A stretch of DNA of 46,377 nt, taken from UHGV virus genome UHGV-1361494. One strand, written 5' to 3'. The translations under genes were made by a program, and so were the position numbers. The notes under the pieces are model-generated. The model had not been told where the DNA came from. It saw nothing but the letters and a program-made list of their open reading frames with translations, and searched no databases. The stretch is from a virus. Below are positions 1-22,469 of the stretch, piece after piece; positions within the stretch are counted from its first letter, which is position 1; every line of letters begins with the position of its first letter.

Positions 1-295
1 ATTTTTTTTGGATTTTGATCGAGAATCTTTCGGTTTTTAGGCTTTCGGATTTTTTATTCTTAAAAATCAACAATTAATGATTGTTTCGAAAGTCGTTTTG
101 AAAGTCTTCTCTTCTTTCATGGATGGTTATTGCTGCTTACGTAGAAAATGATACCACACAAAAAAATCCACGCAAGCCGCATGATTAAAGGATTCTTCAT
201 TATGCTGTTTTTTTTCATAAGAAATGCTCTAAAGGTCACATTTACTTTAAGATGATTTTAGGTTAGATTGTTAGCCTAAACCAGTGGAGGTGACT

Positions 296-856
296 ATGAA
301 GAAAGATGCAGTTGTTTTTATGTTGATGCAGGCTACCTATGAAAAAGACATTGGTAACATGAGATCAAGAATACTTTCTGTCGTTGAGATGTTATCAACC
401 ACAAGGACTGATAAAGACTCTGCGGTAAGGGAAAGAATCATCTCTCTTGTCAGAGACTCTGGTGGGATGACAAAGAAAAAATTGATTTCAACAGCGGCTA
501 GTATAGAGAGCGCCAGCAAAACAAAAGTTTCAGAAATGCTAAACCTTATGGTTACTGATGGTTCCATAAAGATTGATAGCAATAGAAAGATAGGCAGCAA
601 CAGAGCAATAGTCTACGTACTTGGTTCGGTTGAGGATAGCTCTAAGCCAGAAATCAAGAAAGACTCAAAGCTCCCGCCTGATGAGCATCTGGCTCGTGCA
701 AGGATGGTTAGGGGTATCATTATTGAAATAATGAAAAACACAACCGATAAAAAAACAATAATCGACGCAGCCATAAAAGAAAGCGGCGCTCCGCATGACG
801 TCGTACTGAAACAGTACATAAACGTCACAGAATACAACCTGACGCAGTTTGACTAA
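296..856 (+). CDS. hypothetical protein, AT-rich moron-like gene, possible winged-helix fold
   Basis: ORF 284..856; the likely start is ATG 296, preceded by SD GGAGG (286-290). The gene and its upstream region are markedly more AT-rich than the rest of the window, with many AGA/AAA/ATA codons. No recognisable catalytic motif. Confidence 0.5.
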   Translation: MKKDAVVFMLMQATYEKDIGNMRSRILSVVEMLSTTRTDKDSAVRERIISLVRDSGGMTKKKLISTAASIESASKTKVSEMLNLMVTDGSIKIDSNRKIGSNRAIVYVLGSVEDSSKPEIKKDSKLPPDEHLARARMVRGIIIEIMKNTTDKKTIIDAAIKESGAPHDVVLKQYINVTEYNLTQFD

Positions 857-858
857 CA

Positions 859-890
859 AAAAAGCCCACTTTCGTGGGCTTCTTCTTTTT
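859..890. terminator. bidirectional rho-independent terminator
   Basis: aaaaagcccacTTTCgtgggcttcttcttttt lies between convergent genes 296..856 (+) and 893..1276 (-). Confidence 0.6.
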
Positions 891-892
891 CA

Positions 893-1276
893 TCAAAATG
901 GACTAACCGCACTATCCCTGCTGCGCCTGGCATCCAGATATCGCTTCAGTTCCTCACGGTCGATGCTAAACACATCGCAGAAGTTTGCCACGGCATTGCC
1001 AGCGAAATGCTCATCGGGAGTCCACTTGCCGCATTTTTTCGCCACATCACGATAGGGCTGTGAAATGAATGCCGTGTTACCCTTGTAGTTTATGCGGCAG
1101 AAAAATACATCATCCTCTATGCTGTGCCCCATATTGCAACGAAACACCGGCACGCTGTGATAGTAGACTTCCATCAGGTTGCGTCCAGTCATCATGTTTA
1201 GCGCTGCTTCTGGCTCGCACTCAGCTTCATACTGGCTGTATGCAAAAATATCGCTTTGCTGAATTACGCGGATCAT
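893..1276 (-). CDS. hypothetical protein, last gene of the primase operon
   Basis: 127-aa ORF lying tightly behind the primase/helicase gene end (1273). Codon usage matches its neighbours. No recognised motif. Confidence 0.45.
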   Translation of the reverse strand: MIRVIQQSDIFAYSQYEAECEPEAALNMMTGRNLMEVYYHSVPVFRCNMGHSIEDDVFFCRINYKGNTAFISQPYRDVAKKCGKWTPDEHFAGNAVANFCDVFSIDREELKRYLDARRSRDSAVSPF

Positions 1277-3606
1277 ATGCTTACCTCATCATTAACTAAT
1301 TTATAGATGATGGCCCGGTTGCTTGTGCGCTTGGCCTCTTTATCCTCAATAACCTCACCGTCTTCAATGAGCTTGTCCAGCATGCGCTCAGAGTCAGCTC
1401 GTTTATAGTTTCCGTCCTTAGCCACGCCAATGATGATCGCTTTGCGGGCCATTCCACGCTTGACGTACTCACGGACAAGCGATTCAAGCCCTTCTACGCG
1501 CCTGTCGTTGCTCTTGGAGTTAGCCCCTGACAAACTATCAGCCCGCATCATTAAATCGCTTGTTGATTTGATGGTGAGCGCAACGGCGTACCGTAGATGC
1601 TCCATTGTAATAACGCCAGTATCGCAGGCAAGAATCCCGGCTATCTTCGCCACCTTTACAGCGCATCGGTTAATCAACGGTTGATAACCCGTGCCATTTT
1701 CTACGTGCTGACGGGCAATCATCTTGAGCCATGAAAAAAACTCTTTTGCCATCGCTGAAACCTCTGGCGTTGCCTTTATTGCTCGCCTTTCTTTGCTGCT
1801 TATGATTGATTCAGTCCAGTTTTTGTAACCAGCAGTAGTGCCATTTATTATTGTTTTTATAGTCATTTGCAGGGGCATTGGCAGGTCGCAGTATTCCACG
1901 TCTTCGTTTTCGTCTGCGATTTCCTGAAGCTCCTGCATAATCATGGCGCGACCCATGAGACCTGATTTGATGTTCTCTTCGGTAATGAGTTTTTTGAACT
2001 GGTCATCCGTAGATACACCAAACATGGAAAAGAAAGGATTTCGTATCGCACCATCTATACGACGAATCACATCTTCAAACTGACGCTTAATATCGACAGG
2101 ATCTGCTTGCAACTCGTTTTCTTCGATCATCATCATGAGAGTGCCAAGCCTTTTTTCAAACTGCTTGACGTATTCATCAGTGATGCGCTGGTCACAGTAC
2201 AGTATTTCTGCTGTGTATGACTCCATTAGTGCGCCAGCCGTGGCCATGTTGTACTCGCTGACCTTTTGTCCAACCACACTGCCTAGTTTGATGCCAATCT
2301 CATCCATAATGAGGTTAAACATCTGATTAGCTGCCAGCCCCTCATATATGGCTCTTTCAGAACGGATTTTACCGGCCACTGTCTTGCTGAGTCCTGAGCA
2401 GTCGATAATTTTTTGCAGGGCCGCAAGCACGTCACCCTTTCCTGAGCCAGACCCGGCGATGCCAATAGAAAAAAGATTTGGTACAGCCTTACGATTGGTA
2501 AGGTAAATATCTGAAGAGGCGCCGCAGATGATTGATGCCGCATGGATGGCTGCCAGAGCTGCAAGATATTCTCTTTTCTCAGCGCAGTTTCTGTTAATCC
2601 ACTCCGTCAACTTTCCCACGAACCCTGGCGGAAATCGCACATCAACAGATTTGTAATCGACGGGGCATTCTCCAACACCCATCGCCATTTTTTTCTCAAA
2701 CTTCTCAAGCAATGCAATTTCTTCTGGAGATGCCTGAAATGATACCGCACGAACCCATCCACCCTCTTCAGCCAGATGAACAAGAGTAGCGGCAGTGACA
2801 CGGTCTCCGCTTCCCTTACCGTATGAATGCCAGTGGTAATCCATGTCAGATGGGTCATACTTTGAGAAGCGTGATGACCATGAGTCCCACAGCTCAAATC
2901 CGTTACCATCTGTTGCCTCATGAATTGCCATGCCAACTCGAATCCAGTCATCATAATCTTCACCACAGTTAATGTGGTTCAGCATGTCCTGAAGTTCCTG
3001 CATGGAAAACGATTCGGCACCGAGTGAAAATTCCTCGCGCTCTGCTCGCTGCAATAGCCCAACAAGTGACGACGGAGGCTCTGTTATGGATGACGGAGAG
3101 CCATGCTCAGCTTCATAAAAGTTGCCTGATTTGTGGAATGAGCCACATCCTATAACGAAACCTGATGACTTGAAGTCAATTCCTTTGAATCTCTTGTCGT
3201 GAGAATTGAGCTTCACTCCATTTGGCAATTTATAATAAATATGCTTTCCGCCACCACCAGTGTTCACCACAAATCCTGATTCATCGGCAAGCTCCATATC
3301 AAGCGCCTCGCAAAGCGCCTCATACCCTTCATTGCCACCATTTCGCGGGTCAACATCCACGACAAGATAGCCATCGACCAGCACACCGAAGCTGTTTAGC
3401 TGGCCAAACTCGCGCATGTTTTCGAGTTGGTCATCTTCCCATATGATTCCACATTGCCAGTTTGACATTATGGGGTGCTTGCCTGCTGCGTCGCATTCAG
3501 GACGCTCGCAGGTGCATTTTCTGTCATGATCCATCGGGTAGATTCCTATAACAGGGAATCCGGCGGCGTGATAATCCTTGTATCCTGTCATTATTTCGCT
3601 CTCCAT
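1273..3606 (-). CDS. DNA primase/helicase: N-terminal bifunctional primase-polymerase (PrimPol-like) domain fused to a P-loop (D5/P4-type SF3) helicase domain
   Basis: 777 aa. N-terminal region VLVDGYLVVDVDPRNGG carries the acidic DxD signature of PrimPol-type primases. The central/C-terminal region has a P-loop (GIAGSGSGKGD) and later acidic Walker-B-like stretches. The gene is preceded by a Cro-like HTH gene, as in P4-like replication modules. Confidence 0.8.
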   Translation of the reverse strand: MESEIMTGYKDYHAAGFPVIGIYPMDHDRKCTCERPECDAAGKHPIMSNWQCGIIWEDDQLENMREFGQLNSFGVLVDGYLVVDVDPRNGGNEGYEALCEALDMELADESGFVVNTGGGGKHIYYKLPNGVKLNSHDKRFKGIDFKSSGFVIGCGSFHKSGNFYEAEHGSPSSITEPPSSLVGLLQRAEREEFSLGAESFSMQELQDMLNHINCGEDYDDWIRVGMAIHEATDGNGFELWDSWSSRFSKYDPSDMDYHWHSYGKGSGDRVTAATLVHLAEEGGWVRAVSFQASPEEIALLEKFEKKMAMGVGECPVDYKSVDVRFPPGFVGKLTEWINRNCAEKREYLAALAAIHAASIICGASSDIYLTNRKAVPNLFSIGIAGSGSGKGDVLAALQKIIDCSGLSKTVAGKIRSERAIYEGLAANQMFNLIMDEIGIKLGSVVGQKVSEYNMATAGALMESYTAEILYCDQRITDEYVKQFEKRLGTLMMMIEENELQADPVDIKRQFEDVIRRIDGAIRNPFFSMFGVSTDDQFKKLITEENIKSGLMGRAMIMQELQEIADENEDVEYCDLPMPLQMTIKTIINGTTAGYKNWTESIISSKERRAIKATPEVSAMAKEFFSWLKMIARQHVENGTGYQPLINRCAVKVAKIAGILACDTGVITMEHLRYAVALTIKSTSDLMMRADSLSGANSKSNDRRVEGLESLVREYVKRGMARKAIIIGVAKDGNYKRADSERMLDKLIEDGEVIEDKEAKRTSNRAIIYKLVNDEVSI

Positions 3607-3836
3607 TGAGTAACTGCTGGGCGCAAATCTTCCTTTTTAAAAAGTCCGTTGGTTAGCTTATCTACCTCTATGGCAGCCGTTGCGCTGATGCGCCCACGGG
3701 AAACCCATTCGTTTACTGATTGACGAGAAACGCCAAGGAATCGCGCCAGCGATGCCTGTCCTCCCATATGCTCAATAAGAGCATCAAGAGCCTTCTTTTC
3801 CATTTCTTTGATTTGTTCAGCGATGGTTTTCATCTT
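3591..3836 (-). CDS. Cro/Xre-family helix-turn-helix DNA-binding protein
   Basis: ORF 3591..3929; the probable start is internal Met (MKTIAEQIKEMEKKALDALIEHMGGQASLARFLGVSRQSVNEWVSRGRIS). It shows the classic Q-x-x-x-A-x-x-x-G-V-S-x-x-x-V HTH signature. It is divergent from the plus-strand Sak4 operon. Confidence 0.6.
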   Translation of the reverse strand, partial: KMKTIAEQIKEMEKKALDALIEHMGGQASLARFLGVSRQSVNEWVSRGRISATAAIEVDKLTNGLFKKEDLRPAVTQWRAK

Positions 3837-3964
3837 TCCTCCTTCTAATTTATAGAAGAATGATAAACGCAAAATATTTTTATGTAAAGCTATTGACCTG
3901 ACGAATGTCCTGTCGTATCTTTTACTCACACCAGCAACAACGCTGAGTGATTCGAGAGGACACT

Positions 3965-4807
3965 ATGAGCTTATCAATGATTCAAAAACCAAAACCAGTT
4001 TCACCTATCATTACTCTTGTTGGCACCCCTGGCGTTGGCAAGACTACTCTGGCAGCGCTTTTCCCTAAGCCTGTTTTCATTCAGGCGGAAGAGATTACCG
4101 GTGTATTCGACGACTGGGACGAAGAAAACAAGCCTGACTCATTCCCGGTGCTGAAACGAGCTGATGCAAAGCGCAAGACGAGCACCAAAGAAGACTTGTT
4201 GTCGCAGTTGCGCGCTCTTATCACAGAAGAGCATGACTATAAAACGCTGGTTATCGACTCCATCACCAGCCTACACGCCATGTTTGAGCATGAGGTTTGC
4301 GAAAACTATGGAGTAGATAACGTTGGCGCAGCAGCGGGTGGTTACAACAAGGGCTATCTGGTTGTGGCGGAGATGCATGCTGAAATTATTAACGCCTGCA
4401 AGTATCTTCGTTCCAACAAAGGTATGAGCATCATTTATCTTGCGCATGCTGGCATACGTAAGATGAAGAACCGACCAGATTCTGACGAATACACCGTTTA
4501 TACCCTCAATATGCACGAAGCCAGTATTGATGGTTACGTTGCGCTTAGCGATGCTGTTATCTATATCCGCAATGAGGAGTTTGTGAAGGGTGCTGAGACA
4601 GATAAAAAAGGCCAGGTAACTAAGTTCGGTAAAGTTGTGCAGACAGGGCAGCGTGTACTTGTCACCTCTGGTGATGGACGGGTTGGTTACGTTAATGCGA
4701 AAAATCGCTTCAACCTTGAGCCTGAGATTCAGTTTGATAAAGGAGAAAATCCACTTCTGACAGAGATTAAGTATTATGCGTCTTTACGAGATAACGAAAC
4801 AGCTTAA
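3965..4807 (+). CDS. Sak4-like RecA-fold ATPase (AAA_24 family) single-strand annealing/recombination protein
   Basis: ORF 3947..4807; the likely start is ATG 3965, after SD GAGAGG. Walker A is LVGTPGVGKTTLAA, and Walker B is the hydrophobic stretch + D (TLVIDSITS). The size and its context with Gp157-like and SSB genes are typical of Sak4 modules. Confidence 0.75.
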   Translation: MSLSMIQKPKPVSPIITLVGTPGVGKTTLAALFPKPVFIQAEEITGVFDDWDEENKPDSFPVLKRADAKRKTSTKEDLLSQLRALITEEHDYKTLVIDSITSLHAMFEHEVCENYGVDNVGAAAGGYNKGYLVVAEMHAEIINACKYLRSNKGMSIIYLAHAGIRKMKNRPDSDEYTVYTLNMHEASIDGYVALSDAVIYIRNEEFVKGAETDKKGQVTKFGKVVQTGQRVLVTSGDGRVGYVNAKNRFNLEPEIQFDKGENPLLTEIKYYASLRDNETA

Positions 4808-5255
4808 CGAACTGCTTGCGATGGAAGATATTCCGCGCGAGCAGATTGAAGATACCATTAACCTGATTGAGGAGGAGTTTGAAGGAAAGGCCGAGATGGT
4901 GGCCGCTTATATCAGCGAGCTTGAGGCGGATGAGGCTGGCATGAAGGCTGAGATTGTTCGCCTGTCAGAACGCAAACGTGTGCTGACTGCGAAGATAGAT
5001 AACCTTAAAGATTATCTTCGTCAGAACATGCTGGCATCTGGAAAAACGAATATCAAAGGCAAGCTTTTCAGCATCACGCTTGGCAAACCATCTCCTGTTT
5101 TGGATGTGCTTGTCCCGGTTGAGCAGTTGCCTGAGAAGTATCGCGTTGTAAATTTTTCGGCAGATAATGCAGCCATTAAAGCAGCACTGAAAGCCGGAAC
5201 TGAAATTAAAGGTTGTGCCATCACCGATGGAAAACCAAAGCTGATCATCAAATAA
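4776..5255 (+). CDS. Gp157-like protein (Siphovirus Gp157 family), recombination-module partner of Sak4
   Basis: 159 aa, coiled-coil-rich N-terminus. It overlaps the Sak4 3' end and lies between Sak4 and SSB, as in streptococcal/lactococcal phage Sak4 modules. Confidence 0.5.
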   Translation: MRLYEITKQLNELLAMEDIPREQIEDTINLIEEEFEGKAEMVAAYISELEADEAGMKAEIVRLSERKRVLTAKIDNLKDYLRQNMLASGKTNIKGKLFSITLGKPSPVLDVLVPVEQLPEKYRVVNFSADNAAIKAALKAGTEIKGCAITDGKPKLIIK

Positions 5256-5271
5256 TCGAGAGGACATAAAA

Positions 5272-5808
5272 ATGGGTTTCTGGAATCTTTCTGACGGTAA
5301 AGAAGTTGAGTCAAAGTCTGAATTTGAGACTGGTGGTGGTTTTGAAGTTATTCCTGACGGCACCCGCGTGCTGGCTGCTGTTGAAGAGTGCAAGGACGAT
5401 GAATGGGAAGGTGAGCGCTTCTTTAACCTTAAATGGCGCATCCTGGACGATGATTACAAAAATCGTATCATCTTCCAGAAGCTAAAGGTTTTCAGCCAGA
5501 AGGACAAGCAGCGCGATAACGCTATCAGCATGCTGGCAGCAATTGATGCAAACGCTGGAGGTAAATTGATGGCGTCAGGGAAAGAGCCTACTGATTTTGC
5601 AATCGCAAGTGCGCTGGCTAACCGCCCGATGATCCTCCTGCTTCGCGTCTGGCAGTCTGACGATAAGCAGAAATCAGGTAACTACGTCTCTGGCGTCTTT
5701 GGTCGCCAGCAAACTAAATCCGCTACAGCAGCAAAGCCACAAAAGCAAACGGCAAAGCCACAGGGTGAAGAGCCGCCGATGGATTTCGATGAAGATATTC
5801 CGTTTTGA
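5272..5808 (+). CDS. single-stranded DNA-binding protein (DUF669-like phage SSB core) carrying an E. coli SSB-type acidic C-terminal tail
   Basis: 178 aa. The C-terminus ...QGEEPPMDFDEDIPF* is the canonical SSB-Ct interaction tail, preceded by a Q/K/P-rich linker. Position is immediately after Sak4/Gp157. The gene is followed by a rho-independent terminator (5824-5846). Confidence 0.75.
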   Translation: MGFWNLSDGKEVESKSEFETGGGFEVIPDGTRVLAAVEECKDDEWEGERFFNLKWRILDDDYKNRIIFQKLKVFSQKDKQRDNAISMLAAIDANAGGKLMASGKEPTDFAIASALANRPMILLLRVWQSDDKQKSGNYVSGVFGRQQTKSATAAKPQKQTAKPQGEEPPMDFDEDIPF

Positions 5809-5862
5809 TTTTAATAAGTAACCAAGGGCCATTCGTGGCCCTTTTTCATTCGAGAGGACATT

Positions 5863-8769
5863 ATGAAAGTACAGCTTAGAACATACCAACAAGAAGCTGT
5901 TGATTCTGTTATAGGTCATATTCGTTCAAGCGTTTCATCGTGCATGATCATCTTGCCTACGGGCTGCCACGCGAAAGGGACTGAGGTTCTTATGTTTGAT
6001 GGCAGCATAAAAAAAGTAGAGGATGTTGTTGTCGGTGATAAGCTGATGGGGCCGGACAGCAAGCCGCGCAATGTTTTGTTTCTGTGTCGTGGCAGAGAGT
6101 CAATGAGAAAGATAACGCCAACAAAAGGTGAACCTTTTGTTGTTAACGCAAGTCACGTATTGCACCTCAAGAAGGTTGCGAGCGGAAGCAAATATCCATC
6201 TCAAAAGCATGGTTACATTGATGAGAAAGTATCAGAGTTTGAATCGTCTTCCCAATGGCATAAGCACACGCATAAGTTATGTCGTGCTGGGGTTCAGTTC
6301 CCGGAAGCAAAACAAAATCTGCCCGCGAGATTTATTGGAATGATGTTGGGTGATGGCTCAACCACCAGAGGAACTGTAACTTTTTCAGGTAGCGAAGATG
6401 TTCTTATTGATTATTTTTGCAAGGTGGCTGCAGATTTTGGTTGCTATGCAAACGTAACAATGAAGAAATCAACATCGACCAAACACATTCACGCATCCGA
6501 AGGAAAGCGCGGAGGCAAAAAGAATGGTTTACAAGTAGAGATGGAATCGCTTGGTTTGCTGAACAAAAATTCTTATAGCGTTTTTATTCCTTATTGCTAT
6601 AAGGTTGCATCCAGAGAGCAAAGAATTGAATTGCTTTCTGGCCTTATTGATACGGACGGTTATCTTGGTAACAATTACTATGAGTTAACTACTGTATCAA
6701 AACATCTGGCTAATGATGTTGCTTTTGTGGCTCGTTCTCTTGGGTTGGCTGCGTACGTTAATACCGGAGCAGCTACATTGAATGGTGAGTTCATTTCTGA
6801 TAAATACAGAGTCACGATAAGTGGTGATATTGATATTTTGAAACCAATGATTGGTTATAAAAAGGCATCAGCAAGAAAGCAGAAGAAAGACGTATTGTGC
6901 ACTGGTTTTACGGTTGAAGAATTGCCAGAGGATTATTTCTATGGTTTTACTTTGGATGGTGATCACCTCTATCTAACTAGTGACTTCACGATACACCATA
7001 ATAGCGGTAAAAGCGTTGTTGTTGCATCAATAGCCGATTGGGTTTTTAAAAATACTGGCAAGCGTGTTCTATGTGTTGCCCCAACAAGCGAGTTAGTTGT
7101 ACAAAACAGGCAGCGTTATCTTTCTCTCACCGGAGAACCAGCCAGCATGTTCAGCGCAAAGGCTGGGCCAAAAAACCTGCGGCATCCGGTTGTTTTTGGC
7201 TCACCAGTTACAATCAAGAACTCAATAGAGATGTTTGGTGATAAGTATGGTGCTGTCATTATTGATGAGTGTGATGGAATAACACCAACCATTAAATTTA
7301 TTATTAATGAGATGAAGCGCCGCAATCCAAAGCTGCGTGTTATTGGGATGACCGCTACACCTTATCGCCTTGGAACTGGATACATCTACAAAGAGCACTA
7401 CCTCGACGGTCCTACAGATGAAGAAACAGCCATAGACCCATATTACGACAAAGTCGTTTATGAGCTTGAAGCTAAATTTCTCATCGAAAATGGATATCTT
7501 ACGCCACCAGTTACAGAGCCTGTTTTTGACGAGTATGATACGTCTTGTCTTGAAAAGGATAAGTTGGGTCGGTACACAACAGCTTCAGTTGAAAAGGCGA
7601 TGGTTGGCAAGGGAAGGAAAACATCACGTATTGTTGAAGATATTATCCGTCGCTCTGTTAATCGGCGCGGAACTATGATTTTTGCCAGCACCAAGAAACA
7701 CGCTATGGAGATAATGGAGTCACTTCCTCCCGGGTCTTATAGTTATGTTTTTGGTGATATGCCAACAGCAGATCGCAACAAGGCAATATCAGAGTTCAAG
7801 GAACAAAAAGTTAAATACATCGTTAACCAGAATATCCTTACTGTAGGGGTTGATGTCCCTCATTGTGATCACATAGCAGTAATGAGAGCAACAGAATCAC
7901 CAAGACTGTACCAGCAAATAATTGGCAGGGGCACGCGTCTTTATGAAGGAAAGGAAGACTTTCTTGTCAGTGATTACGCCGGAAATATTCAACGTCACTT
8001 TTCAGAAACTGGAGACTTGTTTACTCCAGAAATAAAAGCAACAAGGAAAAAACCATCCGTGCCAATGGATGTCAAATGCCCTCTTTGTGGCTTTATTAAT
8101 GAATTTGGTGTACGTCCAAATCCTGAAAATCTTGAAGTTGACAAGGAAGGTTACTGGCTTGATTTGGCTGGTGACAGGGTGATGATTGATATTTTTGATA
8201 AAACAGGTGAAAAAATTGGAAGCAAGCCTATGCCTGCTCATTTTGGGAGGAGGTGTAAAAACTACGTTATGCACGGGCCATTAAGGGAAATGCACAGGTG
8301 TACTTATAAGTGGTCGGTGAAAGATTGTCCTGATTGTGGATTTGAGAATGATATAGCGGCAAGAAACTGCACATCATGCGGTGCTGAAATAATTGACCCA
8401 AACCAAAAGCTAAAAGAAGAAGCTGACAGGCTTGATTCTTCTCCTTATGCAACAAAGCAATCAAGCGTAACCATGATGAACATTATGAAGCATTACGTTT
8501 CAAGTGGTGAAGATTTGGTGCACGTAAAATTTGCCATTGACCAGAAGCCATTTTTTGTTAGCAAGTTCTACAATCCAAACTCTGAGAAGGAATGGATGAA
8601 GAAGGAGTGGGAAGAGTTTTGCGGGAAGTGCTTTGGTGAATCTGACATGTCAATTGATGATGCAATAGCAAAAAGAGATGAGGCTGTCGCGCCATCAGTT
8701 ATTATGTTCAGAAGAGACAAGGGGAGTAAATATTTCAACGTTAAAGGCATGTATTGGGGGGTATTATGA
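5863..8769 (+). CDS. SF2 (DEAD/DEAH-box type) DNA helicase precursor interrupted by a LAGLIDADG intein; C-terminal zinc-ribbon repeats
   Basis: 968 aa. Walker A is split: ILPTG|C...HN|SGKSVV. Further motifs are motif II IIDECDG and motif VI QQIIGRGTR. C-terminal CxxC clusters (CPLCGF..., DCPDCGF..., CTSCG). The extein alone would be ~622 aa. Confidence 0.85.
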   Translation: MKVQLRTYQQEAVDSVIGHIRSSVSSCMIILPTGCHAKGTEVLMFDGSIKKVEDVVVGDKLMGPDSKPRNVLFLCRGRESMRKITPTKGEPFVVNASHVLHLKKVASGSKYPSQKHGYIDEKVSEFESSSQWHKHTHKLCRAGVQFPEAKQNLPARFIGMMLGDGSTTRGTVTFSGSEDVLIDYFCKVAADFGCYANVTMKKSTSTKHIHASEGKRGGKKNGLQVEMESLGLLNKNSYSVFIPYCYKVASREQRIELLSGLIDTDGYLGNNYYELTTVSKHLANDVAFVARSLGLAAYVNTGAATLNGEFISDKYRVTISGDIDILKPMIGYKKASARKQKKDVLCTGFTVEELPEDYFYGFTLDGDHLYLTSDFTIHHNSGKSVVVASIADWVFKNTGKRVLCVAPTSELVVQNRQRYLSLTGEPASMFSAKAGPKNLRHPVVFGSPVTIKNSIEMFGDKYGAVIIDECDGITPTIKFIINEMKRRNPKLRVIGMTATPYRLGTGYIYKEHYLDGPTDEETAIDPYYDKVVYELEAKFLIENGYLTPPVTEPVFDEYDTSCLEKDKLGRYTTASVEKAMVGKGRKTSRIVEDIIRRSVNRRGTMIFASTKKHAMEIMESLPPGSYSYVFGDMPTADRNKAISEFKEQKVKYIVNQNILTVGVDVPHCDHIAVMRATESPRLYQQIIGRGTRLYEGKEDFLVSDYAGNIQRHFSETGDLFTPEIKATRKKPSVPMDVKCPLCGFINEFGVRPNPENLEVDKEGYWLDLAGDRVMIDIFDKTGEKIGSKPMPAHFGRRCKNYVMHGPLREMHRCTYKWSVKDCPDCGFENDIAARNCTSCGAEIIDPNQKLKEEADRLDSSPYATKQSSVTMMNIMKHYVSSGEDLVHVKFAIDQKPFFVSKFYNPNSEKEWMKKEWEEFCGKCFGESDMSIDDAIAKRDEAVAPSVIMFRRDKGSKYFNVKGMYWGVL
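5965..7002 (+). mobile_element. intein (346 aa) with LAGLIDADG homing endonuclease domain, inserted in the helicase P-loop
   Basis: It begins with Cys (CHAKGTEVLMFDG...) immediately after ILPTG and ends ...FTIHHN, followed by +1 Ser (SGKS). Two LAGLIDADG motifs are present: FIGMMLGDGS and LLSGLIDTDGYL. Boundaries were computed from the codon frame (C codon at 5965-5967, terminal Asn codon at 7000-7002). Confidence 0.85.
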
Positions 8770-9221
8770 TTTTTCCAGAAGGCGTTAAGGTATATGGAGA
8801 TTTAGATTACAGAAACAAAAAGTGCCCGTCAGAAGATGCTGAACTGGAGACCTTTGTTAATCAGATAAGGAAGCTATATCCTGACTTTGCAAGAGTTATG
8901 ATTCATGTTCCAAATGAAGGAAAGCGTAAAGGGTATGAAGTTGAAAACCTGAAGAAAAAGGGCGCGTTAAACTTCGGTGCCTCGGACATCATTATCATCG
9001 GAAAGCAATCATTCGTTATGGAGATGAAAAGAATGGATCATACTTTATCAAAATGGCAGCCAGGGCAAATGGCATACCTCAAGGCTGCAAAAGAATTAGA
9101 ATCCTTCGCGTGCGTATGTCTCGGTTGGGAAGCGGCGATGATGGCATTTAACGACTGGAGAGCAAAGAATTACCCAAACTATAAAAAACCATCAGAGCCA
9201 TTGATATTTGATGGCTTTTAG
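8766..9221 (+). CDS. VRR-NUC domain nuclease (PD-(D/E)xK superfamily)
   Basis: ORF 8754..9221; the likely start is ATG 8766, overlapping the helicase stop (ATGA). Motif ...GASDIIIIGKQSFVMEMKR (D...E-x-K). The helicase + VRR-NUC pair is a common phage cassette. The gene ends with an amber TAG at 9219-9221. Confidence 0.75.
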   Translation: MIFPEGVKVYGDLDYRNKKCPSEDAELETFVNQIRKLYPDFARVMIHVPNEGKRKGYEVENLKKKGALNFGASDIIIIGKQSFVMEMKRMDHTLSKWQPGQMAYLKAAKELESFACVCLGWEAAMMAFNDWRAKNYPNYKKPSEPLIFDGF

Positions 9222-9338
9222 CAACCACGCCAGCAATCAGGCCAACAACCTCAGAGACAACAGCAGCCACCAAAACAACAAAGCCAACAAGGAGGTAATG
9301 AGCCGCCGATGGATTTTGATGATGATATTCCGTTTTGA
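9222..9338 (+). pseudogene. remnant 3' end of a canonical ssb gene (Q-rich linker + NEPPMDFDDDIPF*), in frame after the VRR-NUC amber stop
   Basis: In-frame translation after TAG 9219-9221: QPRQQSGQQPQRQQQPPKQQSQQGGNEPPMDFDDDIPF*. The last 39 nt (9300-9338) match 5770-5808 at 37/39. It is followed by terminator 9341-9365, like the one after the real ssb. Confidence 0.6.
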
Positions 9339-9366
9339 TGAAGAAAGGGCCGAATGGCCCTTTTTG

Positions 9367-11829
9367 TTATCTCATTGTCATTACACGATATATTGCATCT
9401 TTTATTAAATACCCTCCAGTTTCCGGGGCGGGGTGGATACCGTCAGAAGCAAACCAGGGGTGTATCGAACCATAGGCATAATCTGCAGGGTTTTCGCCGA
9501 AGATATATTGCAGGTTTATAAACGCGCAATTCAGATCTGAGGCTACAGTCCTGGCCCTGGCTGCCATTGATGCCATCGTTACCGGGTTGTCAGTCCGCTC
9601 ATTCTCGCATGGCATGACAAACAGGATATCAGCGCCGGGCAACGTCGCCCGGATACGAGCAATAAAAGCGCGCAGGTTAGCTTCAAATGCAGTAGCGCCA
9701 CCAGTGATCCGCTGGTCGTTTGTACCAGTAAGGATGATAACGGTGTCCAACGCCATCTCGGCGAGAGCCTTTCCGAAATCAGTGGCGTCCATTGACAGCC
9801 ATGAAGCAAGACTTGAACCAGATGCGCCAAGCTTATGAACGCGCACACCAGAGCCAGTGCCAATCGGCTTTATCCCACATAACGATACCGTGCCAGATAC
9901 AACCTCAACGTTAATCACATTAGAGGCATTTACAGTAGCCGGTGGGTTAATATCAACAAACAGCAGTCCGCTACCTTGCACGTTGAGCGCCGTCCATTCC
10001 CCTCCATCCCAGTTATATCGAATAACACCGTCACTTGTACCCACAAAGCCCAGCCTGCAGGTTGACCACCCGCCGTCCGAGGTGCCAGGGACCGTAGCCT
10101 TCAGTGCATCCCCTGGTGTAGAGGACGTAACAACAGCAGTATCTGGACTGGAGTTGGTTGGGTTTTTCTTGCCGCTATAACTAAACAACCATGATCCTGT
10201 CCATGTGAATTGCGTTGGCAGGTCTCTGCTGACTGAGAAAATGTTGCCGTTAATTATTGATGCGGATGTGCTGTGACGGCCGAATGATACCCAGCCAACA
10301 CCAGGGCCGGATCCATATTTAGCACGAATCGCTTTTGCTAAAGGTTTCGCGAATCTTTCGGTTAATGTTCCCCATGAATCGCCAAAAATACCAACATTAA
10401 GAATGGCCGATACACCGGCTTCTAGTTGCCCCAATTTCATCCGAGTAACGCGAAGCTGATAGGCTCTCTCTACATAATCGACGACTGGGGCTGCTGTAGT
10501 TGGTATTAAAGACGGGTCCAGCTGTAATGCATATGGCTGGTAACTTGTGGATTCATTACCTTTTTCGAATTGCATTGTATCGAGTGCGGTATTTGCGACT
10601 GACATTCGTACATAAGCTGCCCCAGCAGGAATAGTTAAAGTCCTCGCTGTTGATGGAGATACAAGAGCAGCAACGCCAGAAATATAAGTTTTATTTGCAT
10701 CGTAGAAGGCTGTTTGATGCGAAAAACTTTGCGTGTAATTCTGACCCGCTGTTACAGGGATATAATCAGATGCAGAATACGAAGCGTTAGTGAGTAAATT
10801 ACCGGTCTTATAGTTAACATAATACCCCGATGTGACGGCAGCTTTATCAAAAAGGTTAACTCCTGGAATGAAAAATGATGCTTTATCCACTGTGACGGCG
10901 GCCTTTTGAATTGAAGAAGTAGTCACAACGTTGTTTTGCAGAGGCACTGCATAGGGGGCCACGGGTCTACCAGGCACAGTTGGATGTGCTTCGGATGTAG
11001 CAGACATCAAAAACACTGCGTCCAGCTCTACCGTACCAGCATTAGCGGTGTTTTCGACCCGCACATCCAGCATAACCGCACCAGATGGGACTGTTAGAGT
11101 GCGCAAATACCGATTGAACCCTGTTCCGGTGGCGGATAATAAATACTGTGTCCCTATAGCAGTACCAGACGCATTACGAAAAACAAAAGCAACGCGCCCA
11201 CCAGCATTGGCGTACCATGCGATAACATTTAAAGATATGGTATCCCCGACATCCACGGCACAATCGGCGAGCCATAATCTGCGAGCGGCAATTGCGCCCG
11301 CATCGGGTCCGGCCACAATAGCCGGGAAGCCTAATTTAGCATTGGTCGACAAAGCCGCGGTTAACGTTCCGCTAACAATGTGTGTTTTGCTTCCCACGGT
11401 AGGATTGGATAGCAATACCTCAAATAGCGGATCAAACAAAACATTCAAACCTGAATCAACGGCTTTTGATGCTTTGTCTACTGATTGTTGTGACGGCATT
11501 GCACGATCAGTTGCTGTTAGAGTACCAGCTACATTTTGATATTCCAGCGCCAGAGATGTACCCGAAGCATCGCGCACGTATGTGTAAGAGTTGACCGGTA
11601 TATTAGCAATATCAGCCCGTGCATCAGAAAGTGTCATATATTGCTTACCAAGAGGAATAAGATTTTTTCTTACCCCATCAATGGTATATCTTTCCACGCC
11701 GAATCTATCAGTGTACGTCTCACTACCTGAGTTTACAATCTCGTCAACTTTTTCACAGTTGTATCTAAAATCATTCAGGTCGTTAGACGGGACTGGCTTG
11801 TTAGTTGGGGTGGTAGCCATTGGCTGCAA
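9367..11829 (-). CDS. tail fibre/tailspike protein with C-terminal SGNH (GDSL) esterase domain
   Basis: 820 aa; last gene of the tail module. SGNH block I is NVGIFGDSWGTL, a GxND-like block is ILTGTNDQ, and block V is ASDGIHPAPETGGY (DxxH) near the C-terminus. The N-terminal ~450 aa are fibre-like, Thr/Ser/Ala/Gly-rich. Confidence 0.7.
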   Translation of the reverse strand: MQPMATTPTNKPVPSNDLNDFRYNCEKVDEIVNSGSETYTDRFGVERYTIDGVRKNLIPLGKQYMTLSDARADIANIPVNSYTYVRDASGTSLALEYQNVAGTLTATDRAMPSQQSVDKASKAVDSGLNVLFDPLFEVLLSNPTVGSKTHIVSGTLTAALSTNAKLGFPAIVAGPDAGAIAARRLWLADCAVDVGDTISLNVIAWYANAGGRVAFVFRNASGTAIGTQYLLSATGTGFNRYLRTLTVPSGAVMLDVRVENTANAGTVELDAVFLMSATSEAHPTVPGRPVAPYAVPLQNNVVTTSSIQKAAVTVDKASFFIPGVNLFDKAAVTSGYYVNYKTGNLLTNASYSASDYIPVTAGQNYTQSFSHQTAFYDANKTYISGVAALVSPSTARTLTIPAGAAYVRMSVANTALDTMQFEKGNESTSYQPYALQLDPSLIPTTAAPVVDYVERAYQLRVTRMKLGQLEAGVSAILNVGIFGDSWGTLTERFAKPLAKAIRAKYGSGPGVGWVSFGRHSTSASIINGNIFSVSRDLPTQFTWTGSWLFSYSGKKNPTNSSPDTAVVTSSTPGDALKATVPGTSDGGWSTCRLGFVGTSDGVIRYNWDGGEWTALNVQGSGLLFVDINPPATVNASNVINVEVVSGTVSLCGIKPIGTGSGVRVHKLGASGSSLASWLSMDATDFGKALAEMALDTVIILTGTNDQRITGGATAFEANLRAFIARIRATLPGADILFVMPCENERTDNPVTMASMAARARTVASDLNCAFINLQYIFGENPADYAYGSIHPWFASDGIHPAPETGGYLIKDAIYRVMTMR

Positions 11830-11858
11830 TCTCCGTAATCATTGATTGCCCTATTGTA

Positions 11859-14339
11859 TCATGCAACAGGGTTGGTGTAGGCGTACATGGCGTCATTGTA
11901 CTCAGTTACTGTAAGAGACACTGTGCCATCTGTACCTGGAGTTTTCTGGCTGACTGTCCATAAAGTTGAGTCAAGCTCAACCTCTGTTGAGATGGCATAT
12001 CTTGATTCTGACTGAACGTTAACACCGTCAAAAATGTTTAACTCGAAGTCAGATGGTAATGCGCACTCGAATGTATTCAATCCAGTAACGGTACAAGCCA
12101 ATCGATCTGACACATTTCCATTGGCGCCAGTTATAACTACAAACAGGCCACTTCCTGCCGTGATCTGTTCACTGGTGGTAAATACGTTTCCAGACCTTGA
12201 TCGGATAACGCCCGTCTGCTGCACTGAATCATAAATGTCGACAACAGAAATCATATCGCCAACGTTCACCCACTCACCATCAGCAAGCGCTTTTATCTCC
12301 ATTCCACGGCGTGAGTACATGAGACGGTTGCACTCAAGCATGGCCCGGTCTGTTGCCTGATATAGGTTTCGAACATATAGCATGTCGAATTTTTTCGGCT
12401 TAGTCGGCTCTCCCGGTTCGATACCAGATGTTCCAACTTTATAATAAACGTAAGCCTGTTTGTTGGTGTTTGGGTCGCGGTATTGAACACTTACGCCATC
12501 ATATGACCCTGGCAAAGTCATATCATAAGACATTTTATAGCCATCGGCCTGCGTATTTCTGGTATTGAACACGGTTTCAGGAGTTGATTTTTGCTCATCC
12601 CTTGAGAAAGACAAGACGCCATCATCCCAAAACACGGTTACACGCGCTGCATCACATATGGTCTGAATTCGTTCACCGATCGATTTATCCTCATCGTCAA
12701 ATGTGTAATCAAAATACCCAAGACGCTCATCAGGCAGTGCGTCAGCTATTTCATAGAGTCTTACCACGTCAATAGTGCTTTCAGGTTGACCAGCAGTAAT
12801 AATCCAGTTATGCAGCACTGAATCCGCAAAACTTCTCGATGGTCTTAACGCATAGTCGACTGCCCCCGTTGTTCTGTTATATCCAATAGTCCAGCGGGTA
12901 ATCAGCGCATTATATTTGCGCTCAGTGACTGATGTGGGCTGAAGCGTGGCCTTTACCGTCACTTTAACAAGGGTGTCATCAGGATAAACCACATTCTCGC
13001 GGATGTTGATGGCGTGCGCTGCCTGCAACGTTACGCGGTTGCCAGAGTTTGAGTTATTTGTCCTTTCAATGCTGATGGCGTACTTCGCCACCCCATAAGT
13101 GGGAGTAAACTTATACGTGCGATAGTAGGTTTTTGTTGTCTGAGTAAATGGGTTGTCAATGCTGTCTGCGAGCTGCTCCTCAGTTCCTGGAATGGCATCC
13201 CCATTATCATCAACCGCCCATACCTTGATCAGATAATCTGCCGTGCCACTGGTAGGGCCAAGCTCAGACTGAACGTGAACCCAAACCTGCGTAGACTCCA
13301 CGGCTCCAACATATGGGCCAACAACAAGCGCCTCATTATCCACAATCTGGAAATAAGTATTATTGATGGTTGCGCCGCTCAGGTTTCCAAGATTTGCGCC
13401 AGTCAGGTTATTGAAGGTGAAATTATAAAAATACTGAATATCAGGCGCAGTTCCTGTCTCAGTTTCCTCGGCGGAAATGATGTTGCCGCTAAGCTCAATG
13501 TTTTTGGTTACAGTACCTGACGTTGTGCTGTAAGTTATATTTATTGTTAATGTTACTGAATGAGGAAGAGACAGCCCCATAAAGTAATCGAAATCGGTGT
13601 TTTTTGGTATGACCATCAACAGCTGACCGCCAGCGTAATTTCCGCTGGTAACAGATGTCGTGGTTGCTGTCTCTGTCGGGGTGTCTTCCGATTCATTAAG
13701 CCCTGGAACCTCCTGACCATCAAGTCCGTCGAACTGGTAAGGCTCAATGATTTGTCCGATAGCATCGCCTGGATTGTAGATGACGTGACTTGCCCCCGGC
13801 AGGGAGCCAAGATTAGTTTCCGCATAGCGAACCGAAGAAATGGTGTATTTACCAAGGCCAAAGTTCATGAACTCAGTGACATACTTCAGGTCGTCAATGT
13901 ATTCGAATAATGACTCCTGAATCAGATCAGGGAATGCCCTTACCTGCCCGAAGTTGTCAGGCCTTGCCTCTCCGTTTCGCGCGATATTGGTCTGCGATTT
14001 CAGGCTGTTATTGGGTGATTCAACGGTTGTACCAGTGCTGGTTGATGGCGTTGATGCTTTAGGCAGCAGGAAAGAAAGCACCTTAGTTACAGGTTTTAGT
14101 ATCGTACTGATAAGGTCGCCAATGGCGCCGCGAGGCTGACAGTAAATGTTAACAATATCGTTTTGCTTTAACGATATCGACAATTCATCATCAGGGCCAA
14201 AAATGCGGCCATTCAGCGCAATCCTGATATCAGATGGAAGGCCGGAATTCTCCAGCCATCGCCACAGATTAGTGCCAGCAGGAACATTACCCGTCTCTTT
14301 TGGAACACCTGGCATCTTCTGAATGTGAATAACCGGCAT
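11859..14339 (-). CDS. tail tip/host specificity protein (lambda J-like) with N-terminal gpI-like region
   Basis: 826 aa, directly downstream of the NlpC/P60 K-like gene in lambda order (M-L-K-I-J). Large beta-rich protein. Confidence 0.6.
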
Positions 14340-22218: not shown

Positions 22219-22306
22219 GGATAGTTGGCTGAGAGGCCGAAAGCAGTCGGTTGCTAACCGATAAACCGGAAACGGTTCACAGGTTCGAATCCTGTACTAT
22301 CCGCCA
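22219..22306 (+). tRNA. tRNA-Ser (anticodon GCU), type II with long variable arm
   Basis: Acceptor ggatagt/actatcc, discriminator G, CCA. D-arm gct-gagaggccgaa-agc. Anticodon arm gtcgg-ttGCTaa-ccgat. Variable hairpin accgg-aaa-cggt. T-arm acagg-ttcgaat-cctgt. Confidence 0.85.
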
Positions 22307-22312
22307 CATTCA

Positions 22313-22389
22313 GCACCATTAGCTCATCAGGATAGAGCAATTGCCTTCTAAGCAATCGGTAACTGGTTCGAATCCAGTATGGTGCGCCA
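22313..22389 (+). tRNA. tRNA-Arg (anticodon UCU)
   Basis: Acceptor gcaccat/atggtgc + G + CCA. D-arm gctc-atcaggata-gagc. Anticodon arm attgc-ctTCTaa-gcaat (perfect). T-arm actgg-ttcgaat-ccagt. Confidence 0.85.
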
Positions 22390-22392
22390 AAT

Positions 22393-22469
22393 TCCCGTTT
22401 AGCTTAACTGGTTAAAGCACCCTACTCATAATCGGATGAGTACAGGTTCGAATCCTGTCGCGGGAACCA
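22393..22469 (+). tRNA. tRNA-like gene with Met/Ile-type CAU anticodon loop (CTCATAA) but a poorly paired anticodon stem
   Basis: Acceptor tcccgtt/cgcggga (6/7 pairs incl. G-U), discriminator A, CCA. D-arm gctt-aactggtta-aagc and T-arm acagg-ttcgaat-cctgt are canonical. The anticodon stem cccta/tcgga has only 3 pairs. An alternative perfect 6-bp hairpin actcat-aatcgg-atgagt exists. Confidence 0.5.

Follow-up and report, generated by a model that had tools for sequence, protein, structure and literature searches.

The genome analyzed here, UHGV-1361494, is a viral sequence of 46,377 nucleotides (the window), and the feature under study is a 39-nt direct repeat that codes for the acidic tail at the C-terminus of a protein that binds single-stranded DNA (SSB). 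Its two copies, at 5770 to 5808 (gagccgccgatggatttcgatgaagatattccgttttga) and at 9300 to 9338 on the plus strand, differ at 2 of 39 positions. Without gaps the pair extends to 46 nt at 91% identity (5764-5809 versus 9294-9339; family D4 of the repeat search), the top identity among the listed two-copy direct-repeat families of the window. The copies are 3530 nt apart and, by our own estimate, the expectation of such a pair by chance in 46 kb is approximately 1e-11.

Copy 1 is the functional tail (codons EPPMDFDEDIPF and stop) of a live DUF669-type SSB gene at 5272 to 5808 on the plus strand, the product of which ends in GEEPPMDFDEDIPF, an acidic SSB-Ct-like tail. The open reading frame matches Pfam DUF669 at 21.5 bits (cut-off 21) and phrog_9002, 'single strand DNA binding protein', with an E value of 6e-67. 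The gene for its partner, a Sak4-like annealase (AAA_24), sits two genes upstream. The acidic tail is kept in 17/17 orthologues, all ending in [DE]x[DE][IV]PF. In HK620, the DUF669 protein is a true SSB whose last six residues are needed for Sak4 stimulation (Hutinet 2018, PMC5928155), and the HK620 pair supports recombination with short homology, tolerating 12% divergence, in dependence on those six residues (PMC5928155). In the window, too, a Sak4 gene precedes the DUF669 gene, and the C-terminus of the DUF669 product is likewise acidic with a final PF. HK620 has NDYPPF at this place; the window has MDFDEDIPF, which reproduces the E. coli-type tip almost perfectly, and the window protein is known from sequence alone. 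By analogy with HK620 (PMC5928155), copy 1 may be conserved as protein in all 17 orthologues because the tail is needed with Sak4.

Copy 2 lies downstream of an SF2 helicase gene (5863-8769, plus strand) and of the gene for a 151-residue VRR-NUC-type nuclease (8766-9221, plus strand), which ends in an ordinary TAG stop at 9219 to 9221; relatives have TAA or TGA instead. Translation of 8769 to 9338 reads LIFDGF, a stop, QPRQQSGQQPQRQQQPPKQQSQQGGNEPPMDFDDDIPF and a second stop, so the TAG is in frame with the Q-rich stretch behind it. This stretch consists of Q-rich codons for a disordered linker (9222-9293) followed by the codons of an SSB-Ct tail, GNEPPMDFDDDIPF and stop (9294-9338), which include copy 2.

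Each copy is followed by a putative hairpin terminator. The first, at 5824 to 5843 on the plus strand and 3' of the DUF669 gene (AAGGGCC-ATTC-GTGGCCCTT, then a T run), folds at -13.0 kcal/mol (z -3.2). The second, at 9342 to 9365, folds at -15.6 kcal/mol on the plus strand (z -4.3) and at -13.3 kcal/mol on the minus strand, is likewise followed by a T run and is predicted to act in both directions, between the stretch behind the nuclease (plus strand) and the tail-fibre gene (minus strand). Both have the GC-rich hairpin and U tract expected of candidate intrinsic terminators, and the window has no GGGCC-N(3-8)-GGCCC sites besides these two, against an expectation of 0.18. The sequence GGGCCATTCGTGGCCC is kept in YX3973, Sf11, Sa179lw and RSU-F4K5, and gmqsjt-1 has another hairpin at that position. 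The second hairpin falls within the 60 nt downstream of the stretch, which are identical behind the intact ssb of ZX4. Conservation thus ties the first terminator to the DUF669 gene, and the second to the ZX4-type backbone. An earlier description of this locus, made from the letters of the window alone (the sequence-only reading), had listed the 37/39 repeat, copy 1 as the real end of a DUF669-type ssb, the similar terminators and the in-frame position of copy 2, and all four were reproduced here.

The identity of the second copy was established by comparison with intact genes. Over 9222 to 9341, the window shares 88-98% of its bases with the 3' ends of ssb genes that are annotated and intact in other phages (ZX4, BUCT541, KpV2811, HC6, Akira, Skate and C1), and its last 33 nt before the end of the tail show 0 differences from the ZX4 ssb. 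The linker part matches the C-terminal region of the Akira SSB (...QPRQQSGQQPQRQQQPPKQQSPQGG), which ends in ...GQQQPRQQSGQQPQRQQQPPKQQSPQGGNEPPMDFDDSIPF. Since this C-terminus matches the 38 codons of the window, these codons represent the end of an Akira-type SSB. As in canonical OB-fold SSBs (PF00436), a Gln/Pro-rich linker leads into the tip NEPPMDFDDDIPF; unlike in those, the OB-fold domain (approximately 120 codons) is absent, as are start codon and ribosome-binding site, and only the last 38 codons remain. The stretch begins with CAA right after the TAG, has no in-frame ATG, GTG or TTG before the internal Met of the tail, and contains no OB-fold codons. A Pfam search of its 38 residues returned no match. 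In ZX4 and Akira the gene order is helicase, hypothetical protein, exonuclease VIII, Erf, intact ssb and a convergent tail-fibre or tail-spike gene, and the 38 codons occupy the same position in the window as the intact ssb in those phages.

We consider it very probable that 9222 to 9338 is a non-coding pseudogene remnant, namely the last 38 codons (linker and acidic tip) of a canonical OB-fold ssb stranded at a mosaic junction. The sequence-only reading had already proposed an ssb 3' fossil for the Q-rich linker and second copy, and the match to intact ssb ends and to the Akira C-terminus bears this out. It had also named, as a finding that would speak against its account, the occurrence of the segment within an intact, separately initiated gene in relatives; that is where the segment is found, in ZX4, Akira and dozens more phages whose intact ssb ends with it. 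A host origin of the tail allele was considered and rejected, as a megablast comparison of 9285 to 9345 with 5,426 E. coli genomes gave no match and no exact 28-mer in common. The remnant and terminator are also spanned by an open reading frame in the +1 frame (9208-9408), the Sf11 counterpart of which, gp12 (L004 5458-5640), is annotated as a hypothetical protein. This is most likely a spurious gene call over a pseudogene, and annotators should be aware of it.

Whole-genome comparison placed the remnant at the border of two unrelated segments. The window is collinear with Klebsiella phage ZX4 from 9261 to 46136, in blocks that are mostly 93-98% identical, and shows no homology to ZX4 from 1 to 9260. 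The latter region holds an unrelated module of approximately 9.3 kb (about 1-9260) with genes for prim-pol, Sak4, gp157, DUF669-SSB, helicase and VRR-NUC. The two genome types, as represented by the window and ZX4, therefore have approximately 80% of their DNA in common. What sets them apart is a replication/recombination module of approximately 9 kb, the right-hand joint of which lies inside ssb. The first gene of the ZX4-like backbone is the convergent tail-fibre gene (9367-11829, minus strand; phrog_38670), whose product is 96% identical in amino acids to the ZX4 tail fibre.

The position of this joint could be located within the tail codons. Homology to phages with an intact ssb begins at 9294 for ZX4 and BUCT541 (98% and 96.8% identity) and at 9297 for KpV2811, and in approximately 20 further Klebsiella-phage records with an intact ssb it begins between 9297 and 9300, the latter being the first base of copy 2. 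By these starting points the remnant is itself a chimera, in which the linker (9222-9293) came with the Sf11-like replication module, and the tip, terminator and tail fibre came from the Klebsiella-phage backbone. The exchanged units were the whole replication/recombination module on the left (about 1-9260) and the tail-fibre and structural backbone on the right (from 9294).

Natural recombinants were also found at copy 1. In the Salmonella phages SB28 and Vi II-E1, an intact Akira-type ssb switches at its tail codons to the sequence found downstream of DUF669 in gmqsjt-1, consisting of the terminator and the 5' part of a small open reading frame. From there the sequence jumps to 70-130 nt derived from the 3' end of VRR-NUC. 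This arrangement is the reciprocal scar, and copy 1 is used as a crossover in nature as well. Where these fossils of the other module lie (SB28, L042 3439-3833; Vi II-E1, L046), from ssb to the tail-fibre gene, hypothetical proteins are annotated in SB28 and its close relatives.

That the SSB-tail coding sequence acts as a recombination crossover site is well supported by these breakpoints, and the phages involved encode annealases (Sak4 or Erf). The junctions resemble the mosaic junctions of Botstein's modular theory and of relaxed annealase recombination in that unrelated modules are joined at a short shared sequence, with the breakpoints of many pairwise comparisons falling on the same 40-120 nt, and in that the phages carry annealases able to use short, diverged homology. 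They differ in that the island is the coding sequence of a 13-residue SSB-Ct peptide and not an intergenic linker, and in that in one of the two partners it persists as a dead gene end. The peptide is kept because the tail is required by both of two non-homologous SSB families, OB-fold (PF00436) and DUF669.

The 37/39 match is not special to the window. Across 15 related genomes, the DUF669 tail and the remnant tail agree on average at 31/39 positions, and tails taken from different genomes agree at up to 38/39. Conversion of one tail by the other within a genome was considered, and identity within genomes (31.8/39) exceeds that between genomes (31.1/39) by too little to accept it (permutation p 0.039). 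The match is better described as one conserved peptide in preferred codons than as a private duplication or conversion, the window combining two alleles, one of DUF669 and one of a ZX4-type ssb, that are both near the common codon choice for EPPMDFD-DIPF.

From these observations, the following history can be proposed. The ancestral order, still present in ZX4, Akira and many more phages, would have been helicase, distant VRR-NUC, RecE, Erf, SSB and a convergent tail-fibre gene. The lineage of Sf11, Sa179lw and YX3973 would have had this module replaced by one consisting of prim-pol, Sak4, gp157, DUF669-SSB, helicase and VRR-NUC. The right joint presumably fell within ssb, directly behind the nuclease stop, and stranded the ssb 3' end, which may then have served as a short island of homology with the intact ssb of co-circulating phages. 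In the window lineage, a second crossover in the tail codons around 9294 to 9300 would have put the module onto a ZX4-like Klebsiella-phage backbone. The 39-nt direct repeat would exist because the incoming module brought a live DUF669 SSB with an acidic SSB-Ct tail of the same type, needed for its Sak4 partner, and the in-frame position of the second copy behind the TAG is incidental. The second copy thus appears to be an ordinary scar of mosaic recombination, if an unusually well documented one. An ancestor in which this VRR-NUC is followed by an intact ssb was not found; in the Akira-type module, the distant VRR-NUC is separated from ssb by recE and erf. A literature search for earlier accounts of the junction, or of read-through into an SSB tail, gave nothing specific.

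Relatives of the VRR-NUC gene, collected from IMG/VR, GenBank and metagenome assemblies, fall into four classes by what follows the nuclease stop. In group A, which shares the linker junction of the window, the stop is TAG (window, YX3973, L009-L012 and L145) or TAA (Sf11 and Sa179lw) and is followed in frame by 38-39 codons of Akira-type linker and tip. In group B (RSU-F4K5, L015-L020, L026, L027 and L146-L151), the stop is TGA in 14/15 members and TAA in RSU-F4K5, followed in frame by an ATG and 21-23 codons of ZX4-type linker and tip. Group C (L111 and L141) has a TGA, a single nucleotide and then 15 codons (QQ[TP]PNS[PQ]PMEDDIPF) in the +1 frame. The remnant is absent from at least seven relatives, gmqsjt-1, L108, L112, L113 and L142-L144, where a TAG, TAA or TGA stop is followed by a spacer of a few to approximately 20 nt and the terminator. 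These spacers were examined as further-deleted remnants, and alignment left only about 10 nt, too short to assign.

Several of the remnants carry changes of their own, in part signs of decay. The remnant of L012 is interrupted by a further stop in frame, L020 shows ATT where group B otherwise has its ATG (present in 14/15), L011 and L012 have one additional codon, and L015 and L016 lack six bases, an allele (MDDDIPF) that also occurs in the intact ssb of L069. Private substitutions in the remnants comprise 3 synonymous, 12 non-synonymous and 1 nonsense change, a pattern that would be expected without constraint; in intact genes they comprise 14 synonymous and 27 non-synonymous or nonsense changes. 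The remnants differ from each other mainly at synonymous sites of the tail, which at first sight looks like purifying selection. Their nearest nucleotide neighbours, however, are mostly intact ssb genes of other phages (the L019 remnant and the intact L065 gene agree at 73/74 positions), and over the last 33 nt a remnant shows 0-2 differences from intact ssb genes with the same downstream cassette, as opposed to 5-7 from other intact alleles. The tail allele therefore moves together with the tail-fibre cassette, being re-imported repeatedly from genomes with a live gene. Together with the private substitutions, these two observations explain the apparent conservation of the tail without translation.

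Some of the data weigh against a purely passive scar. Each of the three junction classes has the remnant 0-1 nt from the nuclease stop, and two have it in frame, which is somewhat more orderly than random illegitimate joints predict. The 24 remnants of groups A and B contain no frameshifting indel; every indel is a multiple of three. The comparison of private changes between remnants and intact genes gives a Fisher p of 0.34 and has no power against weak selection, the linker of the intact SSB being poorly constrained itself. All three classes begin their ssb-derived sequence with CAAC(A/C)A (Gln-Gln or Gln-Pro codons), so one possibility is that there was a single ancient joint and that the rest was later exchanged through homology with different ssb types. 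Alternatively, the shared start could reflect selection on deletions that had to spare the conserved C-terminus of the nuclease.

Low-level expression of linker and tip would explain both the abutment of the remnant on the nuclease stop in three classes and the lack of frameshifting indels. Group B would reinitiate at TGA-ATG and group A, including the window, would depend on leaky read-through, yielding a free SSB-Ct peptide or a tailed nuclease. Were this so, the peptide would compete with host SSB for its partners, or the nuclease would be recruited to SSB-coated DNA. The grounds for this reading are limited to the orderly junctions, the indel pattern and the group B ATG, and we regard it as improbable.

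Somewhat more doubtful still is the view that the remnant is maintained as a small gene for a free linker and SSB-Ct peptide, made in group B by reinitiation and serving as a decoy for the partners of host SSB or in Sak4 priming. It would account for the ATG placed directly behind the stop in nearly all of group B, for a 22-24-codon open reading frame that is open throughout that group, and for tail residues (PPMDFDDDIPF) that are almost invariant. Yet neither the window nor any other group A member has a start codon, the ATG of group B lacks a Shine-Dalgarno sequence in front of it, and L020 has lost this ATG. The invariance of the tail is explained by its import with the downstream cassette, and many relatives dispense with the remnant altogether.

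The repeats might instead bracket a mobile cassette, with helicase and VRR-NUC inserted by, or excisable through, recombination between the copies. A 46-nt repeat is of the size of homology used by phage annealases, 12% divergence is tolerated in Sak4 recombineering (PMC5928155), and SB28 and Vi II-E1 demonstrate that crossovers between DUF669 and ssb tails occur. One breakpoint also lies near copy 1, the window being a three-part mosaic. Over 3000 to 5964, its left part, with prim-pol (minus strand), Sak4, gp157 and DUF669, shows 98.7% identity to the group B Klebsiella phage L115. From approximately 5870 (5870-12000 compared), the window is nearly identical (about 100%) to Klebsiella phage YX3973 apart from diverged helicase patches at 7387 to 7486 (81%) and 7887 to 8386 (90-95%); around the repeat and remnant the identity to YX3973 is approximately 95%. 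This left crossover (5863-5964 versus YX3973) falls in the first 34 helicase codons, in the N-extein just before an intein, and is outside the repeat. On the right, the breakpoints fall between module and tail genes instead of parting the cassette from ssb. Sak4, gp157, DUF669, helicase and VRR-NUC are kept together in all 26 DUF669 loci and in all VRR-NUC relatives long enough to judge, and no genome with DUF669 directly before the tail fibre was found among the 26 IMG/VR loci or the GenBank matches. Helicase and VRR-NUC are adjacent in the unrelated Akira-type module too, and the within-genome tail identities give no convincing sign of conversion. A mobile cassette is thus very unlikely. The part of the sequence-only reading that took helicase and VRR-NUC as the unit inserted or exchanged has to be given up, as the pair is never missing from DUF669 genomes, and its suggestion of precise excision of the 3.5 kb between the repeats found no natural example; its idea that the SSB-tail codons are a site of recombination is retained.

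The sequence-only reading had further suggested amber read-through into an SSB-Ct tail by which VRR-NUC could dock on SSB-interacting replisome proteins. Leaky or programmed read-through of the TAG would give a fraction of VRR-NUC molecules an SSB linker and SSB-Ct tail for docking on such replisome or repair proteins, and among these alternatives we give it the least credence. The frame relation is real and is kept in the 24 sequences of groups A and B, and in group A the stop is followed by C. C after a stop codon is a weak termination context in E. coli. Against this, the stop itself varies among TAG, TAA and TGA, and the extension is interrupted in L012, shifted to the +1 frame in group C and absent from at least seven relatives. 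All 16 close homologues of the nuclease have 151-152 residues and end in x[IF][DNE]xF (EPLIFDGF, KSIQIDSF, PPVFINNF, PIDIESF, PVIIDNF and SINIIKEF, genomes with no remnant included). The native F-COOH terminus is thus itself conserved, and an extension would bury it. A search of the read-through product against 5.8e9 proteins found no fused homologue and none longer than 152 residues, and no match covered more than 79% of the query. Folding of the RNA behind the TAG (9200-9300) is no stronger than that of shuffled sequences (z +0.52). Programmed read-through extensions such as the Qbeta A1 protein have in common with the window an open in-frame stretch after a stop; here, in contrast, neither the identity nor the context of the stop is conserved, the extension is interrupted, frame-shifted or absent in relatives, and no stimulatory element is present. 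Reassignment of TAG and a suppressor tRNA were considered and rejected, the tRNAs of the window being Ser-GCT, Arg-TCT and Met-CAT only.

Taking copy 2 as the remnant of an ssb gene, the locus has little value as a mechanism and is instead a clear, well-documented example of phage module exchange. An interaction motif of 13 residues, required by two unrelated SSB families, would produce approximately 40 nt of near-identical DNA, and phages that encode annealases would use this tail DNA as a crossover between replication modules and host-range (tail-fibre) cassettes. Here, a module of the E. coli/Shigella-phage type would have been carried onto a Klebsiella-phage backbone. The tail codons are accordingly a predictable site at which tail-fibre swaps could be engineered in this phage group.

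The assignments of the remaining genes of the module were borne out. The Sak4-like annealase, the first recombination gene of the module (3947-4807, plus strand), matches Pfam AAA_24 with an E value of 1.7e-27, and its RefSeq relatives are labelled 'Sak4-like ssDNA annealing protein'. A Siphovirus gp157-like protein (4776-5255, plus strand; Pfam Sipho_Gp157, E 3.9e-37) is encoded between it and the DUF669 gene. As a single sequence, the 151-residue nuclease did not reach Pfam VRR_NUC. A profile of 31 homologues matched PDB entry 4QBL_A, 'VRR-NUC', with an E value of 4.3e-4 over positions 47 to 133, across the D...ExK...Q core; D74, E86, K88 and Q101 are invariant in the family profile, and the protein has the core expected of a PD-(D/E)xK nuclease. 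Its last 18 codons (9165-9218) form an extension ending in P[VI]x[IF][DNE]xF-COOH that is absent from more distant VRR-NUCs. In appearance this conserved motif is a short peptide for docking, with a loose likeness to SSB-Ct or clamp-binding tails. Akira gp07 (L003 3236-3676), annotated as a hypothetical protein after the helicase, is a distant VRR-NUC with 36% identity to the window protein and a sub-threshold match to Pfam VRR_NUC (E 0.023), and the helicase/VRR-NUC pair is therefore common to both types of module. The cluster of three tRNA genes mentioned above (22219-22469) accounts for direct-repeat family D1.

The helicase (Pfam ResIII, DEAD and Helicase_C) is interrupted by a Hint and LAGLIDADG intein at residues 35 to 380 (approximately 5965-7002), within the Walker A motif (PTG|SGKS); orthologues with no intein align to residues 1-34 and 381-968. 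Among the relatives examined, this intein was seen in the window and YX3973 only. A second Hint and LAGLIDADG intein interrupts the terminase large subunit (40941-43472, minus strand). The DNA of the N-terminal splicing block is 76% identical between the two inteins, which gives rise to an inverted repeat (5992-6092 and 43072-43172; family I1). The intein-bearing helicase of YX3973, KGB52_gp10 (L001 3229-6054), is labelled 'terminase large subunit' in RefSeq and helicase in GenBank, and the RefSeq label was likely caused by the resemblance of the helicase intein to the terminase intein.

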